A DNA stretch of 64,000 nt, from contig OZ024752.1 of assembly GCA_964016885.1 (NCBI GenBank), positions 39,184,001 to 39,248,000 on the forward strand, written 5' to 3'. Position numbers and translations under genes: made by a program. The notes beneath the pieces are model-generated. The model saw nothing but the letters and a program-made list of their open reading frames with translations, was not told the origin of the DNA and did not search any database. The DNA comes from Eledone cirrhosa. Lineage: Eukaryota. Shown here one piece after another: positions 6,902-60,093 of the stretch (positions within the stretch are counted from its first letter, which is position 1; every line of letters starts with the position of its first letter).

Positions 6902-7006
6902 TTAAGGCCACCTTTACACCTCCCTCCTCCTTCAGCAAGAAACATGAGGCCTATCACAAACTCTTCAGCCTAGCCAAGGACCCAACAACAGGCACTCTCA
7001 TCTGGA

Positions 7007-9115
7007 AAATGGTAGTGCTGGTGTCACAGTAAAATGTACTGTCCACACTGTAAAGAGGTAGTGCTGGTGTCACAGTAAAATGTACTCAGTCCACACTGTA
7101 AAGTGGTAGTGCTGGTGTCACAGTAAAATGTACTCAGTCCACACTGTAAAGTGGTAGTGATGGTGTCACAGTAAAATGTACTCAGTCCACACTGTAAAAT
7201 GGTAGTGCTGGTGTCACAGTAAAATGTACTCAGTCCACACTGTAAAGTGTTAGTGCTGGTGTCACAGTAAAATGTACTCAGTCCACACTGTAAAGTGGTA
7301 GTGCTGGTGTCACAGTAAAATGAACTCAGTCCACACTGTAAAGTGGTAGTGCTGGTGTCACAGTAAAATGTACTCAGTCCACACTGTAAAGTGTTAGTGC
7401 TGGTGTCACAGTAAAATGTACTCAGTCCACACTATAAAGTGGTAGTGCTGGTGTCACAGTAAAATCTACTGTAAAATTGTAGTGATGGTGTCAATAAAAT
7501 CTATTGTAAAGTGGTAGTGATGGTGTCACAGTAAAACGTACTCAGTCCACACTGTAAAGTGGTAGTGCTGGTGTCACAGTAAAATGTACTCAGTCCACAC
7601 TGTAAAGTGGTAGTGCTGGTGTCACAGTAAAATCTACTGTAAAATTGTAGTGATGGTGTCAATAAAATCTATTGTAAAGTGGTAGTGCTGGTGTCACAAT
7701 AAAATATACTGTAAAATTGTAGTGATGTGTCAATAAAATCTACTGTAAAGTGGTAGTGATGGTGTCACAGTAAAATCTACTGTAAAATAATAGTGATGGT
7801 GTCACAATAAAATCTACTGTAAAGTGGTAGAGATGGTGTCACAATAAAATCTACTGTAAAGTAGTAGTGATGGTGCCACAGTAAAATCTACTGTAAAGTA
7901 GTAGTGATGGTGTCACAATAAAATCTACTGTAAAGTAGTAGTGATGGTGTCACAATAAAATCTACTGTAAAGTGGTAGAGATGGTGTCACAATAAAATTT
8001 ACTGTAAAGTGGTAGTGATGGTGTCACAACAAAATCTACTGTAAAGTAGTAGTGATGGTGTCACAACAAAATCTACTGTAAAGTAGTAGTGATGGTGTCA
8101 CAGTAAAATCTACTGTAAAGTAGTAGTGATGGTATCAACAAAATCTACTGTAAAGTGGTAGTGATGGTGTCACAACAAAATCTACTGTAAAGTAGTAGTG
8201 ATGGTGTCACAACAAAATCTACTGTAAAGTGGTAGTGATGGTGTCACAACAAAATCTACTGTAAAGTAGTAGTGATGGTGTCACAACAAAATCTACTGTA
8301 AAGTGGTAGTGATGGTGTCAATAAAATCTACTGTAAAGTGGTAGTGATGGTGTCACAATAAAATCTACTGTAAAGTAGTAGTGATGGTGTCAATAAAATC
8401 TACTGTAAAGTGGTAGTGCTGGTATCGCAGTAAAATCTACTGTAAAGTAGTAGTGATGGTATCACAATAAAATCTACTGTAAAGTGGTAGTGATGGTGTC
8501 AATAAAATCTACTGTAAAGTGGTAGTGCTGGTATCGCAGTAAAATCTACTGTAAAGTAGTAGTGATGGTATCACAATAAAATCTACTGTAAAGTAGTAGT
8601 GATGGTATCACAATAAAATCTACTGTAAAGTGGTAGTGATGGTGTCACAATAAAATCTACTGTAAAGTGGTAGTGATGGTGTCACAATAAAATCTACTGT
8701 AAAGTGGTAGTGATGGTGTCAATAAAATCTACTGTAAAGTGGTAGTGCTGGTATCGCAGTAAAATCTACTGTAAAGTAGTAGTGATGGTATCACAATAAA
8801 ATCTACTGTAAAGTGGTAGTGATGGTGTCACAATAAAATCTACTGTAAAGTGGTAGTGATGGTGTCACAATAAAATCTACTGTAAAGTGGTAGTGATGGT
8901 GTCAATAAAATCTACTGTAAAGTGGTTAGTGATGGTGTCACAATAAAATCTACTGTAAAGTGGTAGTGATGGTGTCACAATAAAATCTACTGTAAAGTGG
9001 TAGTGCTGGTATCGCAGTAAAATCTACTGTAAAGTAGTAGTGATGGTGTCACAATAAAATCTACTGTAAAATGGTAGTGATGGTGTCACAATAAAATCTA
9101 CTCACCCAACACTGT
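7007..9115. repeat. Minisatellite switching from a 48-bp to a 37/35-bp unit
   Basis: 48-bp GTCCACACTGTAAAGTGGTAGTGCTGGTGTCACAGTAAAATGTACTCA until about 7620, then the deletion derivative CTACTGTAAAGTGGTAGTGATGGTGTCACAATAAAAT. Confidence 0.95.
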
Positions 9116-11909: not shown

Positions 11910-14900
11910 TTGGTAGAGGCTTCAGGAGTAAACCCCGAGGATAAATCCAGCTGCTGAAGAACTGTGCAGAGCCATTTATAGCTTGCCTGCTGGAAAGGCA
12001 CCAGGAATGGAAGGCATCCTCTCAGAGGTCATCAGGTGTGCAAAGGGAGTGCTACTTAGCGGGAGAGTTGGATGAGCAGCCTCCACATATGCCAGGCTGA
12101 CGAAGAAGAGTCTGAGAGAACAGAAAACTAACTACAAACACCAAGATTACTGTCTACAAGGCGTGTGTCCTCAGCACACTACCTTATAACAGTGAGAGAT
12201 GAAGCCTCTACACCTGACATGATTGGTGTCTCAATGTCTTACACCTTTGTAGCCTGAGACACTTTCTGGATAGCAAGTAGACTGACCGGGTCATGAACAT
12301 TGAGGTCCTCAACTACGCCAAGATACTCAGCATATACACCCTGCTCCAACAGTGCCATCTGCACTAGCTCGATCATGTGCATTACATGCCGGACAGGAGG
12401 ATCCCCAAAGACCTACCATTAGGGGAACTGGCCACTGGCACAAGAACACGAGAACGACTTCATTTTCGCTTCAAAGACATCTACAGGAGGGATATGAAGT
12501 TGATAGAACTGGACACCCAGAGATGGGAGGAAGTCACTAGTGACATCTACAGGAGGGATATGAAGTTGATAGAACTGGACACCCAGAGATGGGAGGAAGT
12601 CGCTAGTGACACCTACAGGAGGGATATGAAGTTGATAGAACTGGACACCCAGAGATGGGAGGAAGTCACTAGTGACATCTACAGGAGGGATATGAAGTTG
12701 ATAGAACTGGACACCCAGAGATGGGAGGAAGTCGCTAGTGACACCTACAGGAGGGATATGAAGTTGATAGAACTGGACACCCAGAGATGGGAGGAAGTTG
12801 CTAGTGACACCTACATGAGGGATATGAAGTTGATAGAACTGGACATCCAGAGATGGGAGGAAGTTGCTAGTGACATCTACAGGAGGGATATGAAGTTGAT
12901 AGAACTGGACACCCAGAGATGGGAGGAAGTCGCTAGTGACATCTACAGGAGGGATATGAAGTTGATAGAACTGGACACCCAGAGATGGGAGGAAGTCGCT
13001 AGTGACACCTACAGGAGGGATATGAAGTTGATAGAACTGGACACCCAGAGATGGGAGGAAGTCACTAGTGACATCTAGAGGAGGGATATGAAGTTGATAG
13101 AACTGGACACCCAGAGATGGGAGGAAGTCGCTAGTGACATCTAGAGGAGGGATATGAAGTTGATAGAACTGGACACCCAGAGATGGGAGGAAGTCGCTAG
13201 TGACACCTACAGGAGGGATATGAAGTTGATAGAACTGGACACCCAGAGATGGGAGGAAGTCGCTAGTGACACCTAGAGGAGGGATATGAAGTTGATAGAA
13301 CTGGACACCCAGAGATGGGAGGAAGTCACTAGTGACACCTACATGAGGGATATGAAGTTGATAGAACTGGACACCCAGAGATGGGAGGAAGTCGCTAGTG
13401 ACATCTACTGGAGGGATATGAAGTTGATAGAACTGGACACCCAGAGATGGGAGGAAGTCGCTAGTGACATCTACTGGAGGGATATGAAGTTGATAGAACT
13501 GGACACCCAGAGATGGGAGGAAGTCGCTAGTGACACCTAGAGGAGGGATATGAAGTTGATAGAACTGGACACCCAGAGATGGGAGGAAGTCGCTAGTGAC
13601 ACCTAGAGGAGGGATATGAAGTTGATAGAACTGGACACCCAGAGATGGGAGGAAGTCGCTAGTGACACCTAGAGGAGGGATATGAAGTTGATAGAACTGG
13701 ACACCCAGAGATGGGAGGAAGTCGCTAGTGACATCTAGAGGAGGGATATGAAGTTGATAGAACTGGACACCCAGAGATGGGAGGAAGTCGCTAGTGACAC
13801 CTAGAGGAGGGATATGAAGTTGATAGAACTGGACACCCAGAGATGGGAGGAAGTCGCTAGTGACATCTAGAGGAGGGATATGAAGTTGATAGAACTGGAC
13901 ACCCAGAGATGGGAGGAAGTCGCTAGTGACACCTACAGGAGGGATATGAAGTTGATAGAACTGGACACCCAGAGATGGGAGGAAGTCGCTAGTGACACCT
14001 AGAGGAGGGATATGAAGTTGATAGAACTGGACACCCAGAGATGGGAGGAAGTCACTAGTGACACCTACATGAGGGATATGAAGTTGATAGAACTGGACAC
14101 CCAGAGATGGGAGGAAGTCACTAGTGACACCTACATGAGGGATATGAAGTTGATAGAACTGGACACCCAGAGATGGGAGGAAGTCGCTAGTGACATCTAC
14201 TGGAGGGATATGAAGTTGATAGAACTGGACACCCAGAGATGGGAGGAAGTCGCTAGTGACATCTACTGGAGGGATATGAAGTTGATAGAACTGGACACCC
14301 AGAGATGGGAGGAAGTCGCTAGTGACACCTAGAGGAGGGATATGAAGTTGATAGAACTGGACACCCAGAGATGGGAGGAAGTCGCTAGTGACATCTACTG
14401 GAGGGATATGAAGTTGATAGAACTGGACACCCAGAGATGGGAGGAAGTCGCTAGTGACATCTACTGGAGGGATATGAAGTTGATAGAACTGGACACCCAG
14501 AGATGGGAGGAAGTCGCTAGTGACATCTACAGGAGGGATATGAAGTTGATAGAACTGGACACCCAGAGATGGGAGGAAGTCGCTAGTGACATCTACAGGA
14601 GGGATATGAAGTTGATAGAACTGGACACCCAGAGATGGGAGGAAGTCGCTAGTGACATCTACAGGAGGGATATGAAGTTGATAGAACTGGACACCCAGAG
14701 ATGGGAGGAAGTCGCTAGTGACACCTACATGAGGGATATGAAGTTGATAGAACTGGACACCCAGAGATGGGAGGAAGTCGCTAGTGACACCTACAGGAGG
14801 GATATGAAGTTGATAGAACTGGACACCCAGAGATGGGTAGAAGTCGCTAGTGATCGGCCACAATGGAGACGAGTACTGGCCAAAGGGGTGGAGTGAGTGG
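11910..14900 (+). mobile_element. Degenerate RTE-clade LINE 3' fragment hosting the 66-bp array
   Basis: Reads VYKACVLSTLPYNSE, then HVHYMPDRRIPKDL...GELATGTR...RFKD, then after the array ASDRPQWRR, as in RTE ORF C-termini. Confidence 0.85.
12475..14852 (+). repeat. 66-bp minisatellite, about 36 copies, derived from RTE coding sequence
   Basis: Each unit encodes DIYRRDMKLIELDTQRWEEVAS and is continuous with non-repeated RTE sequence on both sides. Confidence 0.97.
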
Positions 14901-21344: not shown

Positions 21345-21425
21345 TTTAAACAAGTAAAACATTCATAATGATACATTACTATTGACATTGTCAGTGACAT
21401 CATACTGAAAAGCAAGAGTGACGAA

Positions 21426-21920
21426 AAGATATTATGTTATACATATATCAAAGTATTAGGAGTGAAAATATTGAGCATATTATATATAAAGATATTATGT
21501 TCTACATATATCAAAGTATTAGGAGTGAAAATATTGAGCATATTATATATAAAGATATTATGTTATACAGATATCAAAGTATTAGGAGTGAAAATATTGA
21601 GCATATTATATATAAAGATATTATGTTATACAGATATCAAACTATTAGGAGTGAAAATATTGAGCATATTATATATAAAGATATTATGTTATACAGATAT
21701 CAAAGTATTAGGAGTGAAAATATTGAGCTTATTATATATAAAGATATCAAAGTATTAGGAGTGAAAATATTGAGCATATTACATAGAAAGTTATTATGTT
21801 ATACAGATATCAAAGTATTAGGAGTGAAAATATTGAGCATATTATATATAAAGATATTATATTATACAGATATCAAAGCATTAGGAGTGAAAATATTGAA
21901 TATATTACATAGAAAGTTAT
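21426..21920. repeat. 63-bp minisatellite, about 7-8 copies
   Basis: Unit AAAGATATTATGTTATACAGATATCAAAGTATTAGGAGTGAAAATATTGAGCATATTATATAT; 21-aa periodicity in the ORF track. Confidence 0.9.
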
Positions 21921-22194
21921 TCATTAATGTAATTCAGGTGTAAAAGATACCAAGCAAAAAGGTGTTACAGAAGATAGATAAAAGATATCATAGCATTGAA
22001 AAATGTAATAGTAAGGGTATATGATGCAAAATATTAATAAAGGCATGCATGAGGTAAGAGTTAGAAAATGAATATATCAAGCATATTTCATACAGAATGT
22101 TAAAGACTGTTAAAAGTGTTAAAAATGGAATGCATTATGGTAAAGAAATACGTAATGATATGATGAATAAATGTTGTGTAATGCAAAATATAAA

Positions 22195-22852: not shown

Positions 22853-23358
22853 TCATCATCATCATCATCATCAGGTTTAGCGTCCGTGTTCCACGCTTGC
22901 ATGGGTTTGGACGGGGGTTTTACCACTTGAGGCAAGAGTGGTTGTCTTGCTCGCATAGGACTGTCTGGCGGGTTTTCTACAGTTGGATGCCCTTCCTAAC
23001 ACCAACCACATTTACAGTGTGGGGCTGGGAGGTTTTTACCGTGTTGCCTACACGGCCACATTACAGCATGGACTGTCTGGCGGGTTTTCTACAGTTGGAT
23101 GCCCTTCCTAACACCAGCCACATTTACAGTGTGGGGCTGGGAGGTTTTTACCGTGTTGCCTACACGGCCACATTTACAGCGTGGCCTGTGTGTTTTTTTG
23201 TCGTGACACCTACACGATCTCATTTGTTTCGCCCTGGATGTTGTGGGACCAACATAACTTTACATTGAAAGGGGCGGTGTGGATGGGGTGGAGGTGGTGG
23301 GACGGGGGGGTGTTTTGATAGAGATGCCTACTGACTGTAGTAGGTTTTTACTTTGTAT
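22853..23358 (-). mobile_element. 5'-truncated RTE (3' UTR plus (GAT)n tail)
   Basis: Reverse complement of 32320-32716, with one internal tandem duplication; (CAT)n at 22853-22872. Confidence 0.85.
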
Positions 23359-23529
23359 TATATATATATATATATATATAAATAAATATGTATATATATA
23401 TATATATAAATAAATATGTATATATATATAAATAAATATGTATATATATATATATATATAAATAAATATGTATATATATATATATAAATATGTATATATA
23501 TATATATATAAATATGTATATATATATAT

Positions 23530-25786
23530 ATATATATGTGAATATAGACATAGAATATTCGAAAATATTCTGTATGTTTATAATAAACATTTTGAAGACC
23601 TAATCGCTATAGAATAGAATACGTCACGTATTACAATTAGATTCTCGATAAAAGCAAGGGAAGTAAGTCTACGCGTTTCATTCTTGTTAGAATTCATCAG
23701 GACTACATATCCAGTGCTTTTATCGAGAATGACACAGCTAGAGACTTATAGAATACTTAGCTGTGTACAGGAACTGGTTTGAAAGAGCGGTTGCCGGTCC
23801 GGCAGAAATTAGAAATTGGAATAAATGCTCTGAAATAGCGATATATATGTGAATATAGACATAGAATATTCGAAAATATTCTGTATGTTTATAATAAACA
23901 TTTTGAAGACCTAATCGCTATAGAATAGAATACGTCACGTATTACAATTAGATTCTCGATAAAAGCAAGGGAAGTAAGTCTACGCGTTTCATTCTTGTTA
24001 GAATTCATCAGGACTACATATCCAGTGCTTTTATCGAGAATGACACAGCTAGAGACTTATAGAATACTTAGCTGTGTACAGGAACTGGTTTGAAAGAGCG
24101 GTTGCCGGTCCGGCAGAAATTAGAAATTGGAATAGATGCTCTGAAATAGCGATATATATGTGAATATAGACATAGAATATTCGAAAATATTCTGTATGTT
24201 TATAATAAACATTTTGAAGACCTAATCGCTATAGAATAGAATACGTCACGTATTACAATTAGATTCTCGATAAAAGCAAGGGAAGTAAGTCTACGCGTTT
24301 CATTCTTGTTAGAATTCATCAGGACTACATATCCAGTGCTTTTATCGAGAATGACACAGCTAGAGACTTATAGAATACTTAGCTGTGTACAGGAACTGGT
24401 TTGAAAGAGCGGTTGCCGGTCCGGCAGAAATTAGAAATTGGAATAAATGCTCTGAAATAGCGATATATATGTGAATATAGACATAGAATATTCGAAAATA
24501 TTCTGTATGTTTATAATAAACATTTTGAAGACCTAATCGCTATAGAATAGAATACGTCACGTATTACAATTAGATTCTCGATAAAAGCAAGGGAAGTAAG
24601 TCTACGCGTTTCATTCTTGTTAGAATTCATCAGGACTACATATCCAGTGCTTTTATCGAGAATGACACAGCTAGAGACTTATAGAATACTTAGCTGTGTA
24701 CAGGAACTGGTTTGAAAGAGCGGTTGCCGGTCCGGCAGAAATTAGAAATTGGAATAAATGCTCTGAAATAGCGATATATATGTGAATATAGACATAGAAT
24801 ATTCGAAAATATTCTGTATGTTTATAATAAACATTTTGAAGACCTAATCGCTATAGAATAGAATACGTCACGTATTACAATTAGATTCTCGATAAAAGCA
24901 AGGGAAGTAAGTCTACGCGTTTCATTCTTGTTAGAATTCATCAGGACTACATATCCAGTGCTTTTATCGAGAATGACACAGCTAGAGACTTATAGAATAC
25001 TTAGCTGTGTACAGGAACTGGTTTGAAAGAGCGGTTGCCGGTCCGGCAGAAATTAGAAATTGGAATAAATGCTCTGAAATAGCGATATATATGTGAATAT
25101 AGACATAGAATATTCGAAAATATTCTGTATGTTTATAATAAACATTTTGAAGACCTAATCGCTATAGAATAGAATACGTCACGTATTACAATTAGATTCT
25201 CGATAAAAGCAAGGGAAGTAAGTCTACGCGTTTCATTCTTGTTAGAATTCATCAGGACTACATATCCAGTGCTTTTATCGAGAATGACACAGCTAGAGAC
25301 TTATAGAATACTTAGCTGTGTACAGGAACTGGTTTGAAAGAGCGGTTGCCGGTCCGGCAGAAATTAGAAATTGGAATAAATGCTCTGAAATAGCGATATA
25401 TATGTGAATATAGACATAGAATATTCGAAAATATTCTGTATGTTTATAATAAACATTTTGAAGACCTAATCGCTATAGAATAGAATACGTCACGTATTAC
25501 AATTAGATTCTCGATAAAAGCAAGGGAAGTAAGTCTACGCGTTTCATTCTTGTTAGAATTCATCAGGACTACATATCCAGTGCTTTTATCGAGAATGACA
25601 CAGCTAGAGACTTATAGAATACTTAGCTGTGTACAGGAACTGGTTTGAAAGAGCGGTTGCCGGTCCGGCAGAAATTAGAAATTGGAATAAATGCTCTGAA
25701 ATAGCGATATATATGTGAATATAGACATAGAATATTCGAAAATATTCTGTATGTTTATAATAAACATTTTGAAGACCTAATCGCTA
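23530..25786 (-). mobile_element. Left arm of the 311-bp hammerhead-ribozyme array (putative non-LTR retrozyme), 7 full units plus a partial
   Basis: Exact period 311. HHRs on the minus strand at 23663-23706 and every +311 up to 25529-25572. Only one substitution noticed (24135). Confidence 0.9.
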
Positions 25787-28180
25787 AAAGCACTGGATAT
25801 GTAGTCCTGATGAATTCTAACAAGAATGAAACGCGTAGACTTACTTCCCTTGCTTTTATCGAGAATCTAATTGTAATACGTGACGTATTCTATTCTATAG
25901 CGATTAGGTCTTCAAAATGTTTATTATAAACATACAGAATATTTTCGAATATTCTATGTCTATATTCACATATATATCGCTATTTCAGAGCATTTATTCC
26001 AATTTCTAATTTCTGCCGGACCGGCAACCGCTCTTTCAAACCAGTTCCTGTACACAGCTAAGTATTCTATAAGTCTCTAGCTGTGTCATTCTCGATAAAA
26101 GCACTGGATATGTAGTCCTGATGAATTCTAACAAGAATGAAACGCGTAGACTTACTTCCCTTGCTTTTATCGAGAATCTAATTGTAATACGTGACGTATT
26201 CTATTCTATAGCGATTAGGTCTTCAAAATGTTTATTATAAACATACAGAATATTTTCGAATATTCTATGTCTATATTCACATATATATCGCTATTTCAGA
26301 GCATTTATTCCAATTTCTAATTTCTGCCGGACCGGCAACCGCTCTTTCAAACCAGTTCCTGTACACAGCTAAGTATTCTATAAGTCTCTAGCTGTGTCAT
26401 TCTCGATAAAAGCACTGGATATGTAGTCCTGATGAATTCTAACAAGAATGAAACGCGTAGACTTACTTCCCTTGCTTTTATCGAGAATCTAATTGTAATA
26501 CGTGACGTATTCTATTCTATAGCGATTAGGTCTTCAAAATGTTTATTATAAACATACAGAATATTTTCGAATATTCTATGTCTATATTCACATATATATC
26601 GCTATTTCAGAGCATTTATTCCAATTTCTAATTTCTGCCGGACCGGCAACCGCTCTTTCAAACCAGTTCCTGTACACAGCTAAGTATTCTATAAGTCTCT
26701 AGCTGTGTCATTCTCGATAAAAGCACTGGATATGTAGTCCTGATGAATTCTAACAAGAATGAAACGCGTAGACTTACTTCCCTTGCTTTTATCGAGAATC
26801 TAATTGTAATACGTGACGTATTCTATTCTATAGCGATTAGGTCTTCAAAATGTTTATTATAAACATACAGAATATTTTCGAATATTCTATGTCTATATTC
26901 ACATATATATCGCTATTTCAGAGCATTTATTCCAATTTCTAATTTCTGCCGGACCGGCAACCGCTCTTTCAAACCAGTTCCTGTACACAGCTAAGTATTC
27001 TATAAGTCTCTAGCTGTGTCATTCTCGATAAAAGCACTGGATATGTAGTCCTGATGAATTCTAACAAGAATGAAACGCGTAGACTTACTTCCCTTGCTTT
27101 TATCGAGAATCTAATTGTAATACGTGACGTATTCTATTCTATAGCGATTAGGTCTTCAAAATGTTTATTATAAACATACAGAATATTTTCGAATATTCTA
27201 TGTCTATATTCACATATATATCGCTATTTCAGAGCATTTATTCCAATTTCTAATTTCTGCCGGACCGGCAACCGCTCTTTCAAACCAGTTCCTGTACACA
27301 GCTAAGTATTCTATAAGTCTCTAGCTGTGTCATTCTCGATAAAAGCACTGGATATGTAGTCCTGATGAATTCTAACAAGAATGAAACGCGTAGACTTACT
27401 TCCCTTGCTTTTATCGAGAATCTAATTGTAATACGTGACGTATTCTATTCTATAGCGATTAGGTCTTCAAAATGTTTATTATAAACATACAGAATATTTT
27501 CGAATATTCTATGTCTATATTCACATATATATCGCTATTTCAGAGCATTTATTCCAATTTCTAATTTCTGCCGGACCGGCAACCGCTCTTTCAAACCAGT
27601 TCCTGTACACAGCTAAGTATTCTATAAGTCTCTAGCTGTGTCATTCTCGATAAAAGCACTGGATATGTAGTCCTGATGAATTCTAACAAGAATGAAACGC
27701 GTAGACTTACTTCCCTTGCTTTTATCGAGAATCTAATTGTAATACGTGACGTATTCTATTCTATAGCGATTAGGTCTTCAAAATGTTTATTATAAACATA
27801 CAGAATATTTTCGAATATTCTATGTCTATATTCACATATATATCGCTATTTCAGAGCATTTATTCCAATTTCTAATTTCTGCCGGACCGGCAACCGCTCT
27901 TTCAAACCAGTTCCTGTACACAGCTAAGTATTCTATAAGTCTCTAGCTGTGTCATTCTCGATAAAAGCACTGGATATGTAGTCCTGATGAATTCTAACAA
28001 GAATGAAACGCGTAGACTTACTTCCCTTGCTTTTATCGAGAATCTAATTGTAATACGTGACGTATTCTATTCTATAGCGATTAGGTCTTCAAAATGTTTA
28101 TTATAAACATACAGAATATTTTCGAATATTCTATGTCTATATTCACATATATATCGCTATTTCAGAGCATTTATTCCAAT
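25785..28180 (+). mobile_element. Right arm of the 311-bp hammerhead-ribozyme array, about 7.7 units
   Basis: Reverse complement of the left-arm unit. HHRs start at 25801, 26112, 26423, 26734, 27045, 27356, 27667 and 27978. Confidence 0.9.
25801..25844 (+). ncRNA. Minimal type I hammerhead ribozyme (representative of 15 copies)
   Basis: GUAGUC-CUGAUGA-AUUCU-aaca-AGAAU-GAAA-CGC-GUA/GACUUAC. All core nucleotides are canonical; predicted cleavage after A25837. Confidence 0.92.
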
Positions 28181-28439
28181 ATATATATATATTTAGAAAC
28201 ACACAGATACATGCGGGGACACACATATACATGAATGCATCCGCACCCAACCGTGAGTTAAGGTTGCCAACTTCACCGATGTTGCTCAATGAATGACTGG
28301 GACAGACCAATCCGGTTGAACTAGACTGAACCAGTATCAGAGTTAAAAATACATTATGAAGAGAGAAGAAACATTTAGATATAATTAGTAATAAAATGTA
28401 TCATACCTAAACTGCTCCTAGATTCCTCTCTTCATAATA

Positions 28440-30180
<1,741 letters not shown>

Positions 30181-31170: not shown

Positions 31171-31201
<31 letters not shown>

Positions 31202-31349
31202 ATATATATATAAGTACATTTATATGTATATATATATAAGTACATATATATGTGTATATATAAGTACATATATATGTGTATATATATATGTGTGTCTATA
31301 TATATATATAAGTACATATATATGTGTATATATATTTATATATATATAT

Positions 31350-32716
31350 ATCGGCCACTCCTATACGCAGATGATCTAACGCTCATAGCTGAATCATTGG
31401 CCGAGCTAGAGAAGAAATTCCAAACATGGAAGAATGGCCTAGAATCAAAAGGCCTTAAAATTAACCTGGCTAAGACTAAAGTTCTAGTTTGTAAGAAAGA
31501 AAATAAGGCGGCGGTCCCCTCCGGGAAGTGGCCATGCGCGGAGTGTAGGAAAGGCGTAGGCAGAAACTCCATTTTGTGTCCCAAATGCAAAGTTTGGGTG
31601 CATAAAAGATGTAGTGGGATCACAGGTAAGCTAACTAAGAACATAGATTTTACATGTGGCTGGTGTTCTGGGGCAATAAGTAGCAGCAAGTGCCCAAAAA
31701 ATACTAGCTCTTTCAACTGCGCAGAGGGTTCTATAGAAATAGTGGACAGCTTCCGTTACCTGGGTGACAAAATCAGCAGTGGGGGAGGGTGCTCTGAAAG
31801 TACAGTAGCTAGAATCAGAACTGGGTGGAAAAAGTTCAGAGAGCTTATACCACTATTAGCCGCTAAATGGTTCTCCCTAAAAATGAAAGGCAGGTTGTAC
31901 GATGCCTGCATACGAACAGCAATGTTGCATGGCAGTGAGACCTGGGCATTGTGTGCAGAGGATATACGCAGACTAGGGAGAAACGAAGCTTGCATGCTCC
32001 GCTGGATGTGTAATAGTAATATACGTGAACGACAAAGCATAAACGAACTAAGGAAAAAATTATAAATAAGAGGGATCAGATGTTGTTTACTCGAGAGAAG
32101 GCTACGTTGGTATGGTCACGTGATGCGCATGAAGGACGATAGCTGTATAACAAAGTGCAGGGCAATAAAGATAGACAGTAGCCATGGAATAGGCAGACCC
32201 AGAAAAACCTGGGACGAGCTGATAAACTCCGACCTCAGACACTTACACCTCACCAAGACAATGTCACTGGACTGAGACCTTTGGCGGTACTCAGTAATAG
32301 AGAAGACCCGCCTTACCTAAATACAAAGTAAAACCTACTACAGTCAGTAGGCATCTCTAACAAAATACACCCCCGTCCCACCACCCCCACCCCATCCACA
32401 CCGCCCCCTTCTATGTAAAGTTATGTTGGTGCCACACCATCCAGGCCGAAACAAATGAGATCGTGTAGGTGTCACGACAAAAAAACATACAGTCCATGCT
32501 GTAATGTGGCCGTGTAGGCAACACGGTAAAAACCTCCCAGACCCACACTGTAAATGTGGTTGGTGTTAGGAAGGGCATCCAACTGTAGAAAACCTGCCAG
32601 ACAGTCCTATGCGAGCAAGACAATCACTCTTGCCTCAAGTGGGAAAACCCCCGTCCAAACCCATGCAAGCGTGGAACACGGACGTTAAACGTTGATGATG
32701 ATGATGATGATGATGA
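31350..32716 (+). mobile_element. 5'-truncated RTE LINE (RT C-terminal half, 3' UTR, (GAT)n tail)
   Basis: LLYADD motif, Cys-rich insert, FRYLG, LHGSETW; premature stops; inserted in (TA)n. Confidence 0.95.
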
Positions 32717-32954: not shown

Positions 32955-33057
32955 CATATATACACGTACATACATATATATATATATATGTACATTTATA
33001 TATATATATATATGAAAATAAACCAAAGAAGCCTTCAATACATCAAAAGTCTTTATT

Positions 33058-33098
33058 AGCCAACAATGTTTCGTCCTATTAAGGACTCATCAGGGCAA
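33058..33098 (-). ncRNA. Minimal type I hammerhead ribozyme (second family, left copy)
   Basis: Reverse complement of 33741-33780. Confidence 0.85.
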
Positions 33099-33740
33099 TT
33101 AAAGCTATAAGGAGCATTATCGGCCAATACAAGCCGAAAAACTCAGAAGAATATGGAGTTTACAAACATTAAAGCATAGGAAAATATCAAGTAAAAATTG
33201 CTAAGGAATTGAATAACATTTTGAACCATATTACAAATATAGTCCAATGCAAAATCTAAAGCTAAACAAAGGTGGTATTATAGAGCGGGAATTATTGCAC
33301 GATATATAATATAATATAATATAATATAATATAATTGATAATAATAATAATAATATTAAAAGGCCCAATATATATATATATATATATATACACATATGTA
33401 CACACATATACATATATATTAATACACATTTCCATCAATCCAAGCACAGACTAACCCTTATTAAGAGTTTATATATAAATAAGAATAATAAGAATAAAAA
33501 TAAAGATAAAAATAAAGATAAAAATATAATACATATATTATTTACAGTATAAAATGAAGAATAAATGAAGAATATAGCTTTAGTTTTTGCATTGGACTAT
33601 ATTTGTAATATGGTTCAAAATGTTATTCACTTCCTTAGCAATTTTTACTTGATATTTTCCTATGCTTTAATGTTTGTAAACTCCATATTCTTCTGAGTTT
33701 TTCGGCTTGTATTGGCCGATAGTGCTTCTTATAGCTTTAA

Positions 33741-33780
33741 TTGCCCTGATGAGTCCTTAATAGGACGAAACATTGTTGGC
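33741..33780 (+). ncRNA. Minimal type I hammerhead ribozyme (second family, right copy)
   Basis: UUGCC-CUGAUGA-GUCCU-uaau-AGGAC-GAAA-C-auu-GUU/GGC; stem I extends to CUUUAAUUGCC/GGCUAAUAAAG. Confidence 0.85.
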
Positions 33781-33929
33781 TAATAAAGACTTTTGATGTA
33801 TTGAAGGCTTCTTTGGTTTATTTTCATAATTCTTCGGCTCTGTTTAATTACATTGAGCTATGCTTTTACTGTCATTTCTATAATACGAAGAGGGTGTGTA
33901 ACTCCAACACACTCTAGTATTTTAATTCT

Positions 33930-34189: not shown

Positions 34190-35700
34190 ATCATTTGTTC
34201 GAGTTTGCTTGGTCATTTATGAGCCTAACCCGCCATCCATCATGATCAAGCATAAATGTTGGGAGGTCATTAGGAGAGCATTCTGTGCCTCTATATAGTT
34301 TCTCAATGGAAGTTAAAGCTAGTCAGCTAACTTTCCTCTGACCATGTCTAAGTGACCAAAGCAAAATATCACAAACAAATCTTGCTTTGCTCACCAGCCT
34401 TGTCCTGCAAATCTTATTCTTCGTTCTTGCAATATTGCAGATATATCAGGGATGGGACCATAGAGCAGTTGTTTAGTAGGATGCTGTGTCCACAGATATA
34501 TCAGGGATGGGACCAATAGAGCAGTTGTTTAATAGGATGCTGTGTCCACAGATATATCAGGGATGGGACCATAGAGCAGTTGTTTAGTAGGATGCTGTGT
34601 CCACAGATATATCAGGGATGGGACCAATAGAGCTGTTGTTTAGTAGGATGCTGTGTCCACAGATATATCAGGGATGGGACCATAGAGCAGTTGTTTAGTA
34701 GGATGCTGTGTCCACAGATATATCAGGGATGGGACCAATAGAGCTGTTGTTTAGTAGGATGCTGTGTCCACAGATATATCAGGGATGGGACCATAGAGCA
34801 GTTGTTTAGTAGGATGCTGTGTCCACAGATATATCAGGGATGGGACCATAGAGCAGTTGTTTAGTAGGATGCTGTGTCCACAGATATATCAGGGATGGGA
34901 CCATAGAGCAGTTGTTTAGTAGGATGCTGTGTCCACAGATATATCAGGGATGGGACCAATAGAGCAGTTGTTTAATAGGATGCTGTGTCCACAGATATAT
35001 CAGGGATGGGACCATAGAGCAGTTGTTTAGTAGGATGCTGTGTCCACAGATATATCAGGGATGGGACCATAGAGCAGTTGTTTAATAGGATGCTGTGTCC
35101 ACAGATATATCAGGGATGGGACCAATAGAGCAGTTGTTTAATAGGATGCTGTGTCCACAGATATATCAGGGATGGCACCAATAGAGCAGTTGTTTAATAG
35201 GATGCTGTGTCCACAGATATATCAGGGATGGGACCATAGAGCAGTTGTTTAATAGGATGTTGTCCATGAGATATTAAGTACAGCCCTTAGTATCAGTGTA
35301 TAAGTTCCATCAAGCTTTGATTCTCATTTTGTGTTCAGTGTCCAAGGAATGGCACCATATATCAAAACCAATTCTACAGTGGCGCAGAAGAAGCTGCATT
35401 TTAGGTTGTCTGGATTATGTCCATCTTGTCAAGTGCGGTCCATACATTAGCTATTCTGATCATATCCTTTTCAGTTGAATTGATTTCACTACCAAGATAT
35501 GTGAAGATCTCAACAGATTCAATAGATTCTCCAGTGAGTGTTTCAATAGAGTCCAACGTCATTTGCTGCTTTCTCAAGATAATGAGGCAAGGATTATGCA
35601 TTTGCCATCTTGTCAGCAATTGCAGATAAATCATCTGCATAATCAGCATCAGTCGATTTTTTTGCAGGACTTTTCTGAAATGGATGTACCAATTTGTGAA
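34190..35700 (-). mobile_element. Degenerate RTE LINE fragment hosting the 55-bp array
   Basis: Minus strand has IESVEIFTYLGSEINSTEKDM...W and WTQHPTKQLLYGPIPDIS. Confidence 0.8.
34438..35262. repeat. 55/56-bp minisatellite, about 15 copies, derived from RTE coding sequence
   Basis: Unit ATATATCAGGGATGGGACCA(A)TAGAGCAGTTGTTTAGTAGGATGCTGTGTCCACAG. Confidence 0.95.
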
Positions 35701-40517: not shown

Positions 40518-41640
40518 AGTAATTTTATACCACACCACCTCAGTAACTATAGTTTACCAAGTAATTTTATACCACACCACCTCACTAACTATAGTATACC
40601 AAGTAATTTTATACCACACCACCTCGGTAACTATAGTTTGCCAAGTAATTTTATACCACACCACCTCAATAACTATAGTTTACCAAGTAATTTTATACCA
40701 CACCACCTCAATAACTATAGTTTACCAAGTAATTTTATACCACACCACCTCAATAACTATAGTTTGCCAAGTAACTTTATACCACACCACTTCAATAACT
40801 ATAGTTAGCCAAGTAATTTTATACCACACCACCTCAATAACTATAGTTAGCCAAGTAATTTTATACCACACCACCTCAATAACTATAGTATACCAAGTAA
40901 TTTTATACCACACCACCTCAATAACTATAGTATACCAAGTAATTTTATACCACACCACTTCAATAACTATAGTTAGCCAAGTAATTTTATACCACACCAC
41001 CTCAATAACTATAGTTTGCCAAGTAATTTTATACCACACCACCTCAATAACTATAGTTTGCCAAGTAATTTTATACCACACCACCTCAATAACTATAGTT
41101 TGCCAAGTAATTTTATACCACACCACCTCAGTAACTATAGTTTACCAAGTAATTTTATACCACACCACCTCAGTAACTATAGTATACCAAGTAATTTCAT
41201 ATTATATCACCACAGTAACTATAGTATACCAAGTAATTTTATACCACACCACCTCAATAACTATAGTATACCAAATAATTTCATACTACACCACCTCAGT
41301 AACTATAGTTTGCCAAGTAATTTCATACTACACCACCTCTAACTATAGTTTGCCAAGTAATTTTATACTACACCACCTCAGTAACTATAGTTTGCCAAGT
41401 AATTTTATACAACACCACCTCAATAACTATAGTATACCAAATAATTTCATACTACACCACCTCTAACTATAGTTTGCCAAGTAATTTCACATTATATCAC
41501 CACAGTAACTATAGTATACCAAGTAATTTTATATTATATCACCAAGTAATTTCATAATACACCACCTCAGTAACTATAGATTACCATGTAATTTTATACT
41601 ATACCATCTCAGTAACAATAGTTTACCAAGTAATTTCATA
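40518..41640. repeat. 42-bp minisatellite, about 26 copies, degenerating rightwards
   Basis: Unit AGTAATTTTATACCACACCACCTCAATAACTATAGTTTGCCA. Confidence 0.95.
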
Positions 41641-44600: not shown

Positions 44601-45062
44601 TATGAGCAAACCCGGACAAAGAGCGGTACATTACGAGGGGATATGAAGCAATGGCTGACACCTGTAGCTCACAAGAAAACTGTCACAACCCAGTGATGTA
44701 GATATGATGAGGTGAGTAAAGGCCACCTCTAAAAAAGACTAGTCTTGACGGGTTTGAGAAAATACCAGATTATTGACTGGCATAAATAAGACCACCAAAA
44801 CTGCAATATGGTGAGAGCTAAGAAAAAGAATCATACTGCATTGTCTTTCACATTGAATATCAAGGATGCATTCAGGCCTTAGACAGTGGGGCATGTTCAA
44901 AGAATATATTTCAGTCCCTATTTCCTACTGTAAAACCTGGTGATGTGTCTGCAACCTGTCCTGGGAGGAGTGGCATGGATGCACAAAGTTTGTGTATCTC
45001 GAGACTCCAAAGAGTGTTCGAAATTGAGCAAACATTGACTGTTTGGTATTTAGTTTTGTATA

Positions 45063-48000
45063 TCATCATCATCATCATCATCATCATTTTACGTCCGCTT
45101 GCAAGGGCGGGACGGGTCTTATTGAACACAGCATCTCTCCACTCGTCACGGTCCTTCGTCATCTCCACCGTGAGCTTCAATTATCTGAGGTCTGTTCTCA
45201 CCACCTCTGCCTATGTTTTTTGTGGTCTACCTCTACCACGTCTTCCTTCAACTGGCATTTCCTGGCACTTCTTCACCCATCGGTCATCCTCCATGCGCAT
45301 CACATGTCCATACCACCCCAGTCTCCTCTCCCATACACTACATTCTATCCCTCTCAGACACAGTTTCTCTCTCAACACATTCATGCTGGGTCTTTCATGC
45401 ACATTTACACTGCACATCCAACGGAGCATGCTTGCCTCATTTCTCTCCAGCCGTTGCATATCCTCTGCAGATGCTGCCCATGTCTCACTACCATGCAGCA
45501 TCACGCTCCTCACACAGGCATCATACAACCGTTCTTTCGTACGCAGGGAGAAACCCTTCTTCGTCAACAGAGGAAGCAGCTCCCTAAACTTCTTCCAACC
45601 CGTCCTTATTCTAGATACTATGGCCTCGGAACACCCTCCTCCCATGCTAATCTGATCTCCTAGGTACCGGAAGCTATCCACCACTTCTATAGCGCCCTCT
45701 TGCATTTGAAAAATGTGTCTATCAATGCGACTTCTACTGTCTAATTTCCCTGTACATCTACTGCATACATATTTCTCCCTACCTGTTAGTTTGCCTGCTA
45801 TCCCGCTACATCTCTTGTGTACCCAGGATCTGCATTGTGTGCATTTTATAGAATTTATGCCAGTTCCTTTTCTGCATATCGAACATGGCCATTTCCCTGA
45901 CGGAATCAGGGTTTTGTCCTCTTTTCTACTCATCAACACTTTTGTCTTAGCTAGGTTCACTCTCAGTCCTCTTGCTTCCAACTGCTGTTTCCATAGCCAG
46001 AATTTATTCTCTAGCTCCTCTACTGATTCTGCTATAAGAACCAGATCGTCAGCATAGAGAAGTTCCCATGGACAGCCAGTCTTAAACTCCTCTGTTATGG
46101 CTTGGAGGACTATAATGAACAAGAGCGGGCTGAGGACCGAACCCTGATGTACTCCTACTTGTATCTGGAATTCCTCACTAAACTCCATTCCTACCCTGAC
46201 TTCACTGAGAGTACCTCTGTACAAAGTTTGCACTGTCCTCACAAGCCATTCCTCAACATCTAGCTTCCTTAGGGACCACCAGATGACAGATCGGGGTACC
46301 CTATCAAAGGCCTTCTCTAGGTCAACAAAGGCTAAGTATAGTGGCTTATTTTTCTCTAAGAACCTCTCTTGCAATTGTCTCACCAAGAAGAGGGCATCTG
46401 TTGTACTCTTCCCAGGCACAAAACCAAACTGCATCTCATGTAGTTTGAACCTTTCTCTAATTAGTTGTGCTAATATCCTTTCGGCCACTTTCATAACCTG
46501 ATCTATCAGTTTTATACCCCTATAATTGCTCCTCTCCAGAGCACCCCCTTTACCATTGTAGCAATTTATGAGAATACTGCTGCACCAGTCTTTGGGTATG
46601 ACCACCATATATAGCCTGATTGATGATGCGTGCAACCAGTTTATTGCCTACGTCCCCTGATGCCTTCAGCATCTCAGCAACTATTCCCGATGGTCCAGCA
46701 GCCTTACCATTTTTCATTTCCTTAATCGCCTCTTGGACCCTCTATTCGTCAATCTCAATAGCTGGTCCCTCTGTCAGATCTACTGAGGGTAATTTCTCTC
46801 TCTCCCATTCGTTCTCCACATTCATCAGTCTCTCATAATGACATTTCCAGGCCTCCTTTTTCTGATCATTCGTGACACTAAGTACACCGGGATCAACCTG
46901 GACACATTTATCTCCAACAACATCCTGATTTGCATTGACACACTGCCTTGCAATGTGGAACACTGCACGACTCTGATCTTCCCGTCGCAGAACATTGGCA
47001 AACCTCCTACTCTCCGCCTCCCTGCGTGCTAAGTACACCTGACGTCTAGCTTCTCTCTTAGTGGCTGTATATTCTTCCCTACTCCCACCCTTTTTCCAAG
47101 CCTTCCATGCTAGTCTTTTGTCTCTAATAGCCTTATCTACTGTGCTGTTCCACCACCAGGTCACTCTCTGTCTGGTTGGAGCTCTGCTCCAGCCACAAGT
47201 TTCATCAGTAGCCTGCAGCAAGTTGTCACGTAAGAAATTCCAGTTATTATCTATGTCATACTTCTCTAAATCATCTTCTTTTTCGTCATATACATCTTGA
47301 AGGGCTTTCCTGAATTTGTATTTTAGTGAAAGGTCTTTTAGCTTCCAGACCTTTCTTCTCCACACCTTCCTATATGTCTCATTCCATCTCTTGCTTACTG
47401 AGATATCACTAACAACTAACCTATACTGTGGGGTACATTCTTCCCCATTGTATGCCTTGGTATTAGACACCCTCTGCCTGCCCACTGCCTAACTAGTAAG
47501 AAGTCAATCTGGCTTATGTGCTCACCAGATTTGTAGGTTATTAGGTGATTGGCAGGTTTCTGGAAGTTTGTGTTGCAAATAGTCAATGTACCTGCATCAC
47601 AAAATTCAAGAAGTCTCACTCCTTCTTCATTTCTTGAACTGTAACCGTGCCCACCAGTGTAACCATCCTGGAGCTGTCCAACATGACCATTGAAGTCTCC
47701 TGATAGCATATGATGTCTCCGTCCTCTGTCATTGCGGTTGTTTGTAAAAGTTGCTCGTAAAAGCAGTCTTTCTCATCTTTGCCTAAGCCTGCTTGGGGAG
47801 CATAGACCGAGATGATTGTCAGTAGTCTCCTACCTACAACTAATCTAAGCTTAATTACTCGATTACTAACTTGAACTACCTCTATTGTCTTATTGATACA
47901 TTTCTCAGCCAGGAAAATGCCTACTCCCCCTAACCCATCATCCTTGCCTACCCAGAATTGCTTATAGCTAAGACGCTTGCCTACGACTAGTCTCGCAGAG

Positions 48001-48340
48001 GCACCTCTCCATTTCACCTCTTGCACGCAGCACACATCCACCTGCCTTCTCTCCAGCATCTCCGCTATTTCAGCACATCTACCTCTGAGAGTGCCAACAT
48101 ATAAGTGTTGCAACTCTGAGATGCGAGGTCTTCATATTTTCTTGTTGTTCCTATTTGTTGCTGTGCTGATAAGCGTTTTGGCATTGATACACTGGTTGGA
48201 TGCCCTTCCTAATACCAGCGCCACTTTACAGCATGGACTGGATGCTTTTATTTCTGCCACCAGCACTAGAGAGGATGTCTTACTAGACGCAAGGGCCCTC
48301 TCTACCCCTCCATTTTACAGCATGGTCATTAAAAAAAAAA
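45063..48340 (-). mobile_element. Near full-length RTE LINE (APE endonuclease + RT), disrupted
   Basis: VGTL/CVQE, ISVYAPQ, GDFNGHVG and SQIDFLL (APE); QFGFVPG, AFVDLEKAFD, GVHQGSVLSP and YADD (RT); (GAT)n tail; frameshifts and a stop. Confidence 0.97.
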
Positions 48341-54300: not shown

Positions 54301-56876
54301 GGTAGATGTGGAGAGATCTGATCTCAGCAGACTGAACCTCACAGAAGAGATTATGAATGTATGATATAAAGTAGAAGGAAACTGTGCTTGAAAGGACCCA
54401 TACAGCCCATGAAAACATGAAAAAATAGATGTAAAAAGGTGATAATGATATATATATAAACAACATTCAATTTGGCTATAATTATGTAATCTAAATAAAC
54501 TCTGAAATATTGATAATTTTCTCACTGAATTTGTTTATTTGTTTAATTAAAATATTAAAAATTAAGAATTCTGAAAAATACATGTTTTTAAAAATCAAAA
54601 ATATATGTTCTATTATCTTCTAACATATCAGAACCATCTGCTGTCCATCTTTTTTCATTCTAGCTATTAACAATTTACTGGTAAGAAGATCAACAACCAT
54701 TTACTTCTGCTTCTTGTCTTTTTTGTTCTTATTTAATGCTTCCATTAATTTATTCATATTTTCTGGATCCATCTCCTTGACTTCCATTTTTTATAATACA
54801 TAATATGTTTATTTAGTAATTTGATAGGATCCATTAGTAATTTTTCTTGAGAAAAGATGATGTGGCAGATTAAAAGAAGAGAAAGGGAGAATGATTACGT
54901 AACAGTATTGGAATAGGTTCTAAAGAAAGGTTGAAAGTTATGAAGTAGAAGCAAAGTTACAAAGTAATATATTTTGATATGACAATGTGAAGGGCTATAT
55001 TTAAGTGACTGAGTGAATTAGAAATAAATATTTATAAAATTAAATTATTATTCAACAAAAGAAAAATGGGGAAAACAAAAGTTATAAGATAAATAAGTCT
55101 TTAAATAATACCTAGTTCCAAATAATCAATCGAATCATAGGTGTCATCTGAAATTGTAAGAATAAAAATATATATTATTGTATATTTTCTGAATTTCTTT
55201 TGAATATTGAAATTCCTTCATTGCGAAAATAATTAAATTTATGACTATATTAAGTTAATAATATTATTTTTAATTTTAAGGGGCTTCTTAAAAAATAAAG
55301 TCGTTTGCAAGACAAATACATTCTAATCCTGAAGCACATATATGTTCTTCTTAAACAATTTTTACATGTATGGTATAGAGATGCAATAAATGGTATTTTC
55401 TATTCTAAAGTATGACACACACGCATATATATATATATACACAATGTGTGTGTGTGTGTATGTGTGTTCAAAATAGAGAAAGAGAGAGGAGTGGTTGAGG
55501 TGGATGGAGAGTGAGAAATAGACAAAAATATTTTCCAAGCCTAAAGAAGAAATCAGTTAGGGTATTCTCCCTCTTCTTATTATTAGTTGTTTGGCAGTAT
55601 TGGTAGAGCATTAGATACCATGATTTGCAGCATAGAGTTATGGCCCTTTTCGTTCTGAGTTCAAATCCCATCGAGGTTAACTTTGCCGTTCATCCGTACA
55701 GGATGAATGGCACTGGGTAATTGCTGGCCTCGTGCCAAAAGTAGAAACAATTATTATTATTATCTACTTCTTTTTCTTCTTTTTCACCCACATATTCCTG
55801 GGATGGTCATGGGAGCAAAGTCCTAAAGCATGCCGTTGACACTATTGGCATGCAGTTAGAATATCTCAAAAAAGAAACGCTGGACAGATTTTATGGGCAA
55901 AACCAACCTTCTTCTTTGGCCACATATTTCTGAGAGAGTCATGGCGTCAGAGTTCTTAAACACTCCTTCGGGTGAGTCTGGTTAGAAGCAAGCATTTCCA
56001 ACAGATCTGACTGGATCTCCAAGCACCACCCACTATGTTCATGAATTTTATCCAACCATCTCACTTGGGGTCTACTCTGGATCTTGTGCTGGTTGGTTTT
56101 GCATATAAAATATGTCCAGCAATTCTTTCTTGAGACATTCTAACATGCCGAAAGTATTGCAGCCTGGATGTCTCAATCTAGAGAAATAACAGCTCTACCT
56201 GTAGTGCTTCTCTGATCTCTGAGCTATGCATTCTATCAAGTAACATTACTCAAAAGACCTTTCAGTGGAACCACATTTCGGCCCCCCTTGTATTCACAAT
56301 CGTATTCTTTCTCAGCAGAGCTGTTCTGCTAGAGAACAGGACCGCAGGTAGCAGATGGCGATAAGGTCACCAGATACAATGGTTAGTTGCAATATAATCT
56401 AGTAGCTTCCAGATGTATGAGCAAACCCGGACAATGAGCGGTACATTACGAGGGGATATGAAGCAATGGCTGACACTTGTAGTTCACAAGAAAACTCTCA
56501 CAACCCAGTGATGTAGATATGATGAGGTGAGTAAAGGCCACCTCTAAAAAAGACTAGTCTTGACGGGTTTGAGAAAATACCAGATTATTGACTGGCATAA
56601 ATAAGACCACCAAAACTGCAATATCGTGAGAGCTAAGAAAAAGAATCATACTGTATTGTCTTTCACATTGAATATCAAGGATGCATTCAGGCCTTAGGCA
56701 GTGGAGCATGTTCAAAGAATATATTACAGTCCCTATTTCCTACTGTAAAACCTGGTGATGTGTCTGCAACCTGTCCTGGGAGGAGTGGCATGGATGCACA
56801 AAGATTGTGTATCTCGAGACTCCAAAGAGTGTTCGAAATTGAGCAAACATTGACTGTTTGGTATTTAGTTTTGTAT

Positions 56877-59800: not shown

Positions 59801-60093
59801 GCAGAGGCACCTCTCCATCCCACCTCTTGCACGCAGCACACATCCACCAGCCTTCTCTCCAGCATCTCCGCTATTTCAGCACATCTACCTCTGAGAGTGC
59901 CAACATATAAGTGTTGCTGTGCTGATAAGCGTTTTGGCATTGATACACTGGTTGGATGCCCTTCCTAATACCAGCGCCACTTTACAGCATGGACTGGATG
60001 CTTTTATTTCTGCCACCAGCACTAGAGAGGATGTCTTACTAGACTCAAGGGCCCTCTCTACCCCTCCATTTTACAGCATGGTCATTAAAAAAA
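56877..60093 (-). mobile_element. Near full-length RTE LINE, duplicate of 45063-48340, disrupted
   Basis: Same motifs and same insertion flanks; a deletion of about 45 bp near the ORF start; additional stops. Confidence 0.97.

Follow-up and report, generated by a model that had tools for sequence, protein, structure and literature searches.

The window considered here is a stretch of 64,000 nucleotides of the Eledone cirrhosa genome (GenBank assembly GCA_964016885.1, contig OZ024752.1, positions 39,184,001 to 39,248,000 of the forward strand), in which positions 23530-28180 are occupied by an array of 311-bp period carrying 15 hammerhead ribozyme cores, one per unit. These coordinates, the period, the 15 hammerheads with their core and a first plus-strand cleavage site after 25837 had been given by an earlier annotation made from the letters alone (the sequence-only reading), and all of them are confirmed. 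The single tandem array that it described is instead composed of two arms with a 2-bp overlap; in fact, Tandem Repeats Finder reports two separate arrays of period 311, at 23530-25786 and 25781-28180, and the arms lie head-to-head in opposite orientation, the left on the minus strand and the right on the plus strand, and not head-to-tail. That reading had overlooked the inversion, and with it the pair of fixed end sites described below; these are the most telling features of the insert.

The numbering of unit positions begins with the base that directly follows the site of hammerhead cleavage. The left arm (23530-25786, minus strand) contains 7.26 tandem 311-bp units with seven hammerheads, whose scissile A residues are at 23670, 23981, 24292, 24603, 24914, 25225, and 25536; its outer (3') end, on the 23530 side, corresponds to unit position 140 and sits in the AU tract of the unit, merging with the TA target, and its inner (5') end, at the centre, corresponds to unit position 61. 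The right arm (25785-28180, plus strand) contains 7.70 units with eight hammerheads, with cleavage sites after 25837, 26148, and so on up to 28014, and runs from its inner end at unit position 259 to its outer end at unit position 166, at 28180. The arms meet at a head-to-head junction (25785-25786) whose 2 bp of microhomology are common to both. The 26 bp from 28155 to 28180 (plus strand, unit 141-166) are present at the right end only and form a "tail", which would represent the spacing of two putative start sites of reverse transcription; it measures 35 bp where the other end reads 131. Both ends of the insert lie inside (TA)n, with a (TA)n-rich target microsatellite on the left (23359-23537) and a remnant of it on the right (28179-28192), and in such a sequence a target-site duplication is unreadable.

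The unit is 311 bp long with 34% GC, and no open reading frame (ORF) of at least 150 codons is found within the array. The near-zero divergence noticed in the sequence-only reading amounts to a single substitution, at 24135, over some 4,650 bases, both arms included; the insert represents a single recent insertion from a dispersed family of non-coding repeats with units of 310 or 311 bases. Chimeric long reads can create palindromes, and an assembly artefact, be it a fold-back long read or the collapse of a satellite, would agree with the fact that no listed contig of run X1 spans the junction of the window locus, but the probability of this explanation is negligible. The flanks are not mirror images, their common part being pieces of the 3' end of a long interspersed element (LINE) that are 89-94% alike and recur in the window, so that the insert is not a fold-back read. 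Moreover, the arms differ in length and end at different fixed unit positions, junction and haplotype are specific to each locus, and the contigs of run X1, which may be the source sample, hold eight other minus-to-plus unit joints.

A complete type I hammerhead is found at 26112-26155 (plus strand, cleavage after 26148). It comprises a helix I with a 1-nt bulge, the sequence CUGAUGA, a 5-bp helix II (AUUCU/AGAAU) with a 4-nt loop, GAAA, the GUA triplet, and a helix III formed by the palindrome ACGCGU; the core is intact in all 15 copies. The motif is contained in a hairpin (26088-26177, plus strand) in which an internal loop and then a perfect closing stem of 16 bp (26088-26103 with 26162-26177) follow on from helix I; the fold has a z-score of -4.5 and none of 200 shuffled sequences is equally stable. 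By this predicted structure, the motif is a canonical type I hammerhead and not a "minimal" one, as it had been classified. The sequence-only reading had also drawn stem III as two pairs around a 2-nt loop. A loop III of this size is sterically unable to close, and therefore helix III of the monomer would consist of one pair and a CGCG loop. The dimeric use of helix III that the same reading envisaged is instead favoured by the folding model, in which two motifs cofold as a double hammerhead at -22.9 against 2 x -7.5 kcal/mol, a predicted gain of about 8 kcal/mol; the double form is described for newt and axolotl ribozymes.

The Rfam search recommended by the sequence-only reading gives no match at gathering score, and the only sub-threshold match is Hammerhead_HH9 (17.8 bits against a cut-off of 52, E = 0.17); the putative hammerhead is called from its intact core and from covariation across sister families, and not from Rfam. 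In particular, among 10 sequences of the family and its sisters, 15 of the 30 predicted pairs are changed on both sides, a figure matched by none of 500 shuffles and compared with 3-6 in slid controls. The sequences are not independent of one another and their alignment also served to derive the structure, and in these terms the covariation supports the predicted hairpin and hammerhead and is not a proof of them. The 16-bp stem is preserved by compensatory changes in older sister families, and the fixed variants of the young family fall at a free core position, in loop II, or where wobble keeps the pair.

The family is widely dispersed in the genome, as the sequence-only reading had anticipated by assigning the array to the young retrozymes without long terminal repeats (LTRs); this class is supported by the non-coding units of about 311 bp, by the hammerhead in each of them and by the dispersal. 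By exact pattern matching, the window's exact 40-base hammerhead has 1,144 genome copies, an 18-mer common to most hammerhead forms has at least 11,995 (a lower bound, one common variant escaping the pattern), and the junction between unit position 166 and (TA)n has 1,051 identical occurrences; the reversed-pattern control is 0 in each case.

A census was made on contig 1, where the first 100 tail junctions, selected by one end only (unit 166 plus TA), were all fetched. It includes 91 simple two-armed loci, three two-armed loci running past the fetched DNA, one with a small extra inverted piece, three one-armed loci, and two one-armed loci beside an N gap, the inverted second arm being present in 95 of the 100 junction-selected loci. 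The unselected end falls at unit 119-140 in 90 of 91 loci (131 in 39 and 140 in 32) and is TA-rich in 87 of 91; the ends at 131 and 140, which bracket an AU tract able to pair with the target, probably represent a single site that is read in two ways, with a 2-base slip or without it, and the resulting tail is 26-35 bp long. The minus-then-plus order is also found at all nine loci that were chosen by the hammerhead alone. Each arm has at least two units at 56 of the 91 two-armed loci; the lengths of 182 arms fit an exponential distribution (mean 1.5 kb, up to 14 kb, Kolmogorov-Smirnov (KS) p = 0.09) and the lengths of the two arms are weakly correlated (rho 0.27, p = 0.01). No foreign insert separates the arms in any two-armed locus of the census, and none carries an ORF of its own for reverse transcriptase (RT) and GIY-YIG, the hallmark of an autonomous Penelope-like element (PLE).

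Insertions of PLEs are marked by an inverted 5'-truncated copy, a tail of 30-40 bp at one end, and a bias for (TA)n (10.1101/2021.04.23.441226, PMC11167929, PMC4209133). All three marks are present in the Eledone family, as inverted second copy, one-sided tail, and (TA)n target, and the combination of an inverted second arm, fixed ends with a tail, and a TA target argues for a PLE-type enzyme acting from both sides. The purified protein of an anole PLE nicks and extends both target strands and is modelled as a dimer; it begins reverse transcription at two internal positions, and the distance between them corresponds to the tail (PMC11167929). The two end sites of the Eledone family, 26-35 bp apart, are likewise located downstream of the hammerhead. 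A single LINE reverse transcriptase, with the inversion produced by twin priming or fold-back, is scarcely probable in its place. RTE-like LINE copies, with RT frames and AP-endonuclease pieces, do lie within the window, and twin priming yields inversions with microhomology; however, twin priming inverts a 5' portion at positions that vary and is not known to duplicate the 3' end, whereas here both outer ends are 3' ends of sense copies at two fixed internal sites, neither poly(A) nor an own simple-repeat tail is present, and both arms repeat the same sequence many times.

The nature of the template is reflected in the variants of the units, which were compared in 71 insertions with at least three full units (691 units). 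These insertions show 25 fixed haplotypes, 16 of them seen once, and both arms carry the variants of their locus (55 of 55 agree; in a cruder arm comparison 36 of 38, with L058 and L059 flagged). In 66 of the 71 arrays no variant is common to several but not all units, and 69 substitutions are private to single units, at a rate of 3.2e-4 per base; units differ at 2.64 positions between arrays and at 0.29 within them (63 arrays), an approximately ninefold gap. This gap, the agreement of the arms, and the lack of subset variants argue that an insert usually went through a single-unit stage and was synthesised in one go, in agreement with the one-shot synthesis from a monomer proposed in the sequence-only reading. 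A different order of events, in which a PLE inserts short arms of one or two units that later expand locally in tandem by unequal crossing-over, corresponds to the satellite route proposed in bioRxiv 10.64898/2026.07.22.740005. Some growth after insertion is indeed visible at L050, where the longest arm (44-46 units) has variants common to nine and to five units, and at L037 and L038, where pairs of units share them, but the star-like pattern of the other arrays is that of units all made together, and the two arms are long together with near-exponential lengths. Local expansion is accordingly a very unlikely origin of these arrays.

Inner ends and junctions were considered at 81 loci, that is, the 91 two-armed loci minus 10 (nine without a usable full unit or odd, and one with a variant at the junction). 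Only four of 162 inner ends lie within -3 to +4 of the cleavage site, 3.7 being expected (KS against uniform, p = 0.07), and the lack of enrichment speaks against linear monomers, so that a circle and an uncleaved multimer are the templates left; linear monomers copied with template jumping were ruled out because they would pile up inner ends at the cleavage site. The junctions show microhomology in 50 cases, are blunt in nine, and have extra bases in 22, with a mean microhomology of about 2.1 against 0.75 by chance; such microhomology and extra bases are as would be expected for the joining of two cDNA ends by repair. A 173-bp duplication across the head-to-head junction, in which the same 5-bp microhomology joint is repeated, was also observed (L021:4343-4520).

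The unit can be divided into the hammerhead hairpin and a backbone (25892-26077, plus strand, approximately unit 55-240), which has about 75-82% identity with older sister families whose units are of approximately 317-320 nt and whose hairpins and hammerheads are different. The backbone holds both end sites and is a candidate for the region recognized by the PLE protein. Sister-family loci (L111-L140, L072:2440-2870, L091:290-705, L106:8965-9115, and L067:1466-1774) have the same two end sites, are often inverted pairs, and include many copies with a decayed hammerhead core; a 29-base pattern of these families has 1,593 exact matches. Small inverted hammerhead islands in (TA)n occur at L107:3210-3310, L097:7780-7900, L096:885, and L093:9245, with a helix II nearly equal to that of the commonest retrozyme form and a weak profile match. 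The likeness to such solo islands of the pseudo-LTR (pLTR) type is weak (73% over 81 nt, E = 5e-4), and a derivation of the unit hairpin from an inverted solo-pLTR island was discarded, as it relies on one weak match and is unneeded, the sister families having a homologous stem. A further hammerhead tandem array, with a period of about 490-510 bp, is weakly related to the backbone (L101:8050-9800, E ~0.01).

The reading favoured here, with a probability of roughly 0.7, is that a PLE protein with RT and GIY-YIG domains started from the two sides of a break in a TA microsatellite and copied a single small RNA, which was probably a circle. Multimeric transcripts would self-cleave by means of paired (double) hammerheads and would then be ligated into monomer circles. 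The PLE protein would nick both strands of the (TA)n tract and each 3' end would prime inside the RNA, one in the AU tract (unit 131-140) and the other at unit 166; the possible pairing with the target reaches 8-9 bases at the former and only 2 bases at the latter. Two enzymes would circle one and the same template, each for a number of turns that varies, stopping at random, and microhomology or a few extra bases would join the two cDNA ends, generating the head-to-head junction. A minority of the insertions likely used an uncleaved or mixed multimer. The read-through transcript that the sequence-only reading placed at the origin of the monomers is doubtful at the window locus, where the sense strands point outwards from the centre and a transcript from the flank would thus read one arm antisense and the other sense, giving a predicted hairpin, about 2.2 kb long, in which the ribozymes are masked. 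Since a transcript entering from the flank is predicted to fold back, an internal promoter or strongly asymmetric inserts are the more likely sources of active templates.

Several observations weigh against this reading, beginning with those on the enzyme. The genome contains 10,597 GIY-YIG candidates and, in favour of the scheme, long frames with a PLE-type RT and GIY-YIG, yet the backbone was not found in an ORF-linked repeat at any of 40 GIY-YIG loci drawn from these candidates, and no autonomous partner was found among the 22 of 30 sister-family loci inspected, all of them non-coding. GIY-YIG loci, blastn, and a backbone profile, tried as routes to a partner, led only to further retrozyme copies. 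Long PLE-type frames with RT plus GIY-YIG at the C terminus are located at L091:4809-7622, L092:2488-5019, and L093:1775-5062; those of L091 and L092 are near-identical, which indicates a young family and a candidate partner.

Other adverse points concern the ribozyme. A U-U mismatch closes helix II in 50 of the 71 insertions, the subfamily of the window having A-U, and this closure should weaken cleavage in most copies. Published cleavage tests are mixed, one of nine frog retrozyme dimers having been cleaved, and in the young family none of the 27 sites with fixed changes falls in the 12 core bases, where about one is expected, a difference that is not significant. For PLEs, hammerhead mutants still inserted in vitro and unprocessed RNA was the main substrate (PMC11167929).

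The remaining points bear on the template and would suit a variant of the scheme in which the same PLE and the same start sites act on a linear multimer that was transcribed from a resident array and left uncleaved, with the hammerhead weak or idle and circles minor. The dominance of unprocessed RNA in vitro and the U-U closure of the commonest form agree with it, inner ends that ignore the cleavage site fit it as well as they fit a circle, and unit-specific variants are in some cases shared at mirror positions of the two arms (7 of 75 over 77.7 kb of arm overlap, at two of 81 loci, L058 and L048). At L058 (G000:C1:136719500-136725900) the first two units of both arms have one haplotype and the units after them have another, so that six mirror variants come from one switch; this locus, which one monomer circle fails to explain, is the best single case for a multimer template. 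At L048 one variant is found at the mirror position in both arms. At L146 (G000:C1:61293175 inward) one arm has an A>G change of helix I in its two inner hammerheads but not in the four outer ones, and the other arm has it in all seven, a distribution that would result from a template switch or from editing during copying. A linear multimer is nevertheless unlikely as the usual template: the 25 fixed haplotypes in 71 insertions and the ninefold gap require a bottleneck of one unit; about 25 of the 75 variants, instead of seven, would be mirror-shared if the sources were as variable as the present arrays (an estimate from the private rate); and daughter arrays would never be longer than their sources. 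With the circular template retained as the preferred one, most events can be read as circles and few as multimers or template switches.

As regards RNA editing, the fixed A>G and T>C sites are seven and five, respectively (p = 0.27), and A>G accounts for seven of the 27 fixed substitutions and for five of the 69 private ones (Fisher p = 0.03, several tests having been made); the A>G changes of unit positions 21, 260, and 277, which are sites in stems, recur on different backgrounds. A scar of A-to-I editing on the fixed variants is suggestive only. None of the runs listed for the unit is on record as RNA, and no RNA of the family, either linear or circular, was seen. Runs X4, X5, and X6 each contain one 340-nt contig equal to one closed 310-nt unit, and these contigs were considered as circular RNA and rejected as evidence of expression: in the control with the spliced ribosomal-protein L6 gene, the three runs hold high-copy intronic repeats, nothing over the two exons, and no splice joint, which points to trace genomic DNA and a collapsed repeat.

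Taken as a whole, a fuller scheme has about an even chance: the approximately one thousand near-identical insertions would each result from twin rolling-circle reverse transcription, in which a pair of PLE proteins holds the two ends of a break and goes many times, in each direction and from the two fixed internal start sites, round one ribozyme-made circle; the family would be a viroid-like lineage of circles that keeps a backbone for PLE recognition, with the hairpin remodelled and A-to-I edits of the circle occasionally fixed in entire arrays.

The known systems closest to the Eledone family are the metazoan non-LTR retrozymes, which are non-coding tandem units of about 300 nt with low GC and one type I hammerhead each (PMC7229834). 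The sequence features defining retrozymes are found here, namely non-coding units of 150-450 bp, GC below 50%, a hammerhead per unit, no LTR, and dispersed arrays. The short palindromic helix III of the window repeat matches that of the axolotl HHR_Amex1, and HHR_Amex2 shares with the commonest form a U-U at the base of helix II (PMC7229834). Rolling-circle reverse transcription by a PLE has been proposed for retrozymes in the same work, which describes head-to-tail repeats and, when present, larger target duplications, and whose main text does not contain the words "inverted" or "orientation"; circular RNA was demonstrated for those retrozymes, whereas in the Eledone family it is a prediction. 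Retrozyme repeats are described in PMC7761336 as having no conserved motif that points to a partner, in contrast to the two fixed end sites and the conserved backbone of the Eledone family. Li, Clavereau and Pollet 2026 (10.64898/2026.07.22.740005) take co-occurrence and pLTR similarity as arguments that retrozymes derive from PLEs and are mobilised by them; their work, as far as consulted, deals mainly with vertebrates, contains no analysis of ends, tails, or inversions, and favours local tandem amplification after insertion, against which the Eledone variant pattern argues. Their frog families have a matching autonomous pLTR, and none was found here among the 40 GIY-YIG loci.

The EN+ (endonuclease-bearing) PLEs resemble the Eledone family in having a hammerhead upstream of two internal start sites (10.1101/2021.04.23.441226, PMC11167929, PMC4209133). 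Unlike them, the Eledone repeat encodes neither RT nor endonuclease and its arms are many perfect 311-nt copies; its hammerhead is canonical with a long closing stem, whereas the PLE hammerhead is minimal (PMC4209133), and one of its start sites can pair with the target, whereas the anole PLE starts at a non-homologous site (PMC11167929). On sequence features, the family falls within the definition of retrozymes (PMC7229834) and appears to insert like a PLE without being one. Retrozymes and their proposed mobilisation by PLEs were already known, and what appears to be new is the two-armed architecture with fixed ends; no description of two-armed retrozyme arrays was found in the literature searched, although subscription papers and supplements outside the search could hold one.

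Other repeats are present in the window. A second, unrelated inverted element in (TA)n is located at 33010-33830, with 254-bp arms that are 98% alike, hammerhead-like cores at 33093 (minus strand) and 33746 (plus strand), and an extension beyond the right arm; it looks like an inverted pair of PLE pseudo-LTRs. LINE copies or 3' ends, the LINE having an AP-endonuclease, an RT, and a PHD-like finger, are found at 44800-48100, 56600-60000, 31200-32700, 22860-23350, and 28880-29400; two LINE 3' ends, 89-94% alike, flank the array in opposite orientation, probably by chance. Unrelated minisatellites without hammerhead cores are located at 1023-2641, 7002-9102, 12476-14853, 21425-21921, 34438-35263, and 40518-41533, with periods of 58, 37/48, 66, 63, 55, and 42, respectively.

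In the literature consulted, direct support is lacking both for the movement of animal retrozymes by PLEs and for the formation of arrays by reverse transcription around a circle, and the way in which PLEs make inverted-plus-tail insertions is called undefined in the PLE literature. In the Eledone family the start sites are exactly placed, a target and a substrate of 311 nt are given, and approximately one thousand very young events are at hand, by which all three questions become testable. Palindromes of 1-15 kb that formed recently make up at least 3.7 Mb of the genome (11,995 units), and they may affect the load of double-stranded RNA and the stability of the genome.

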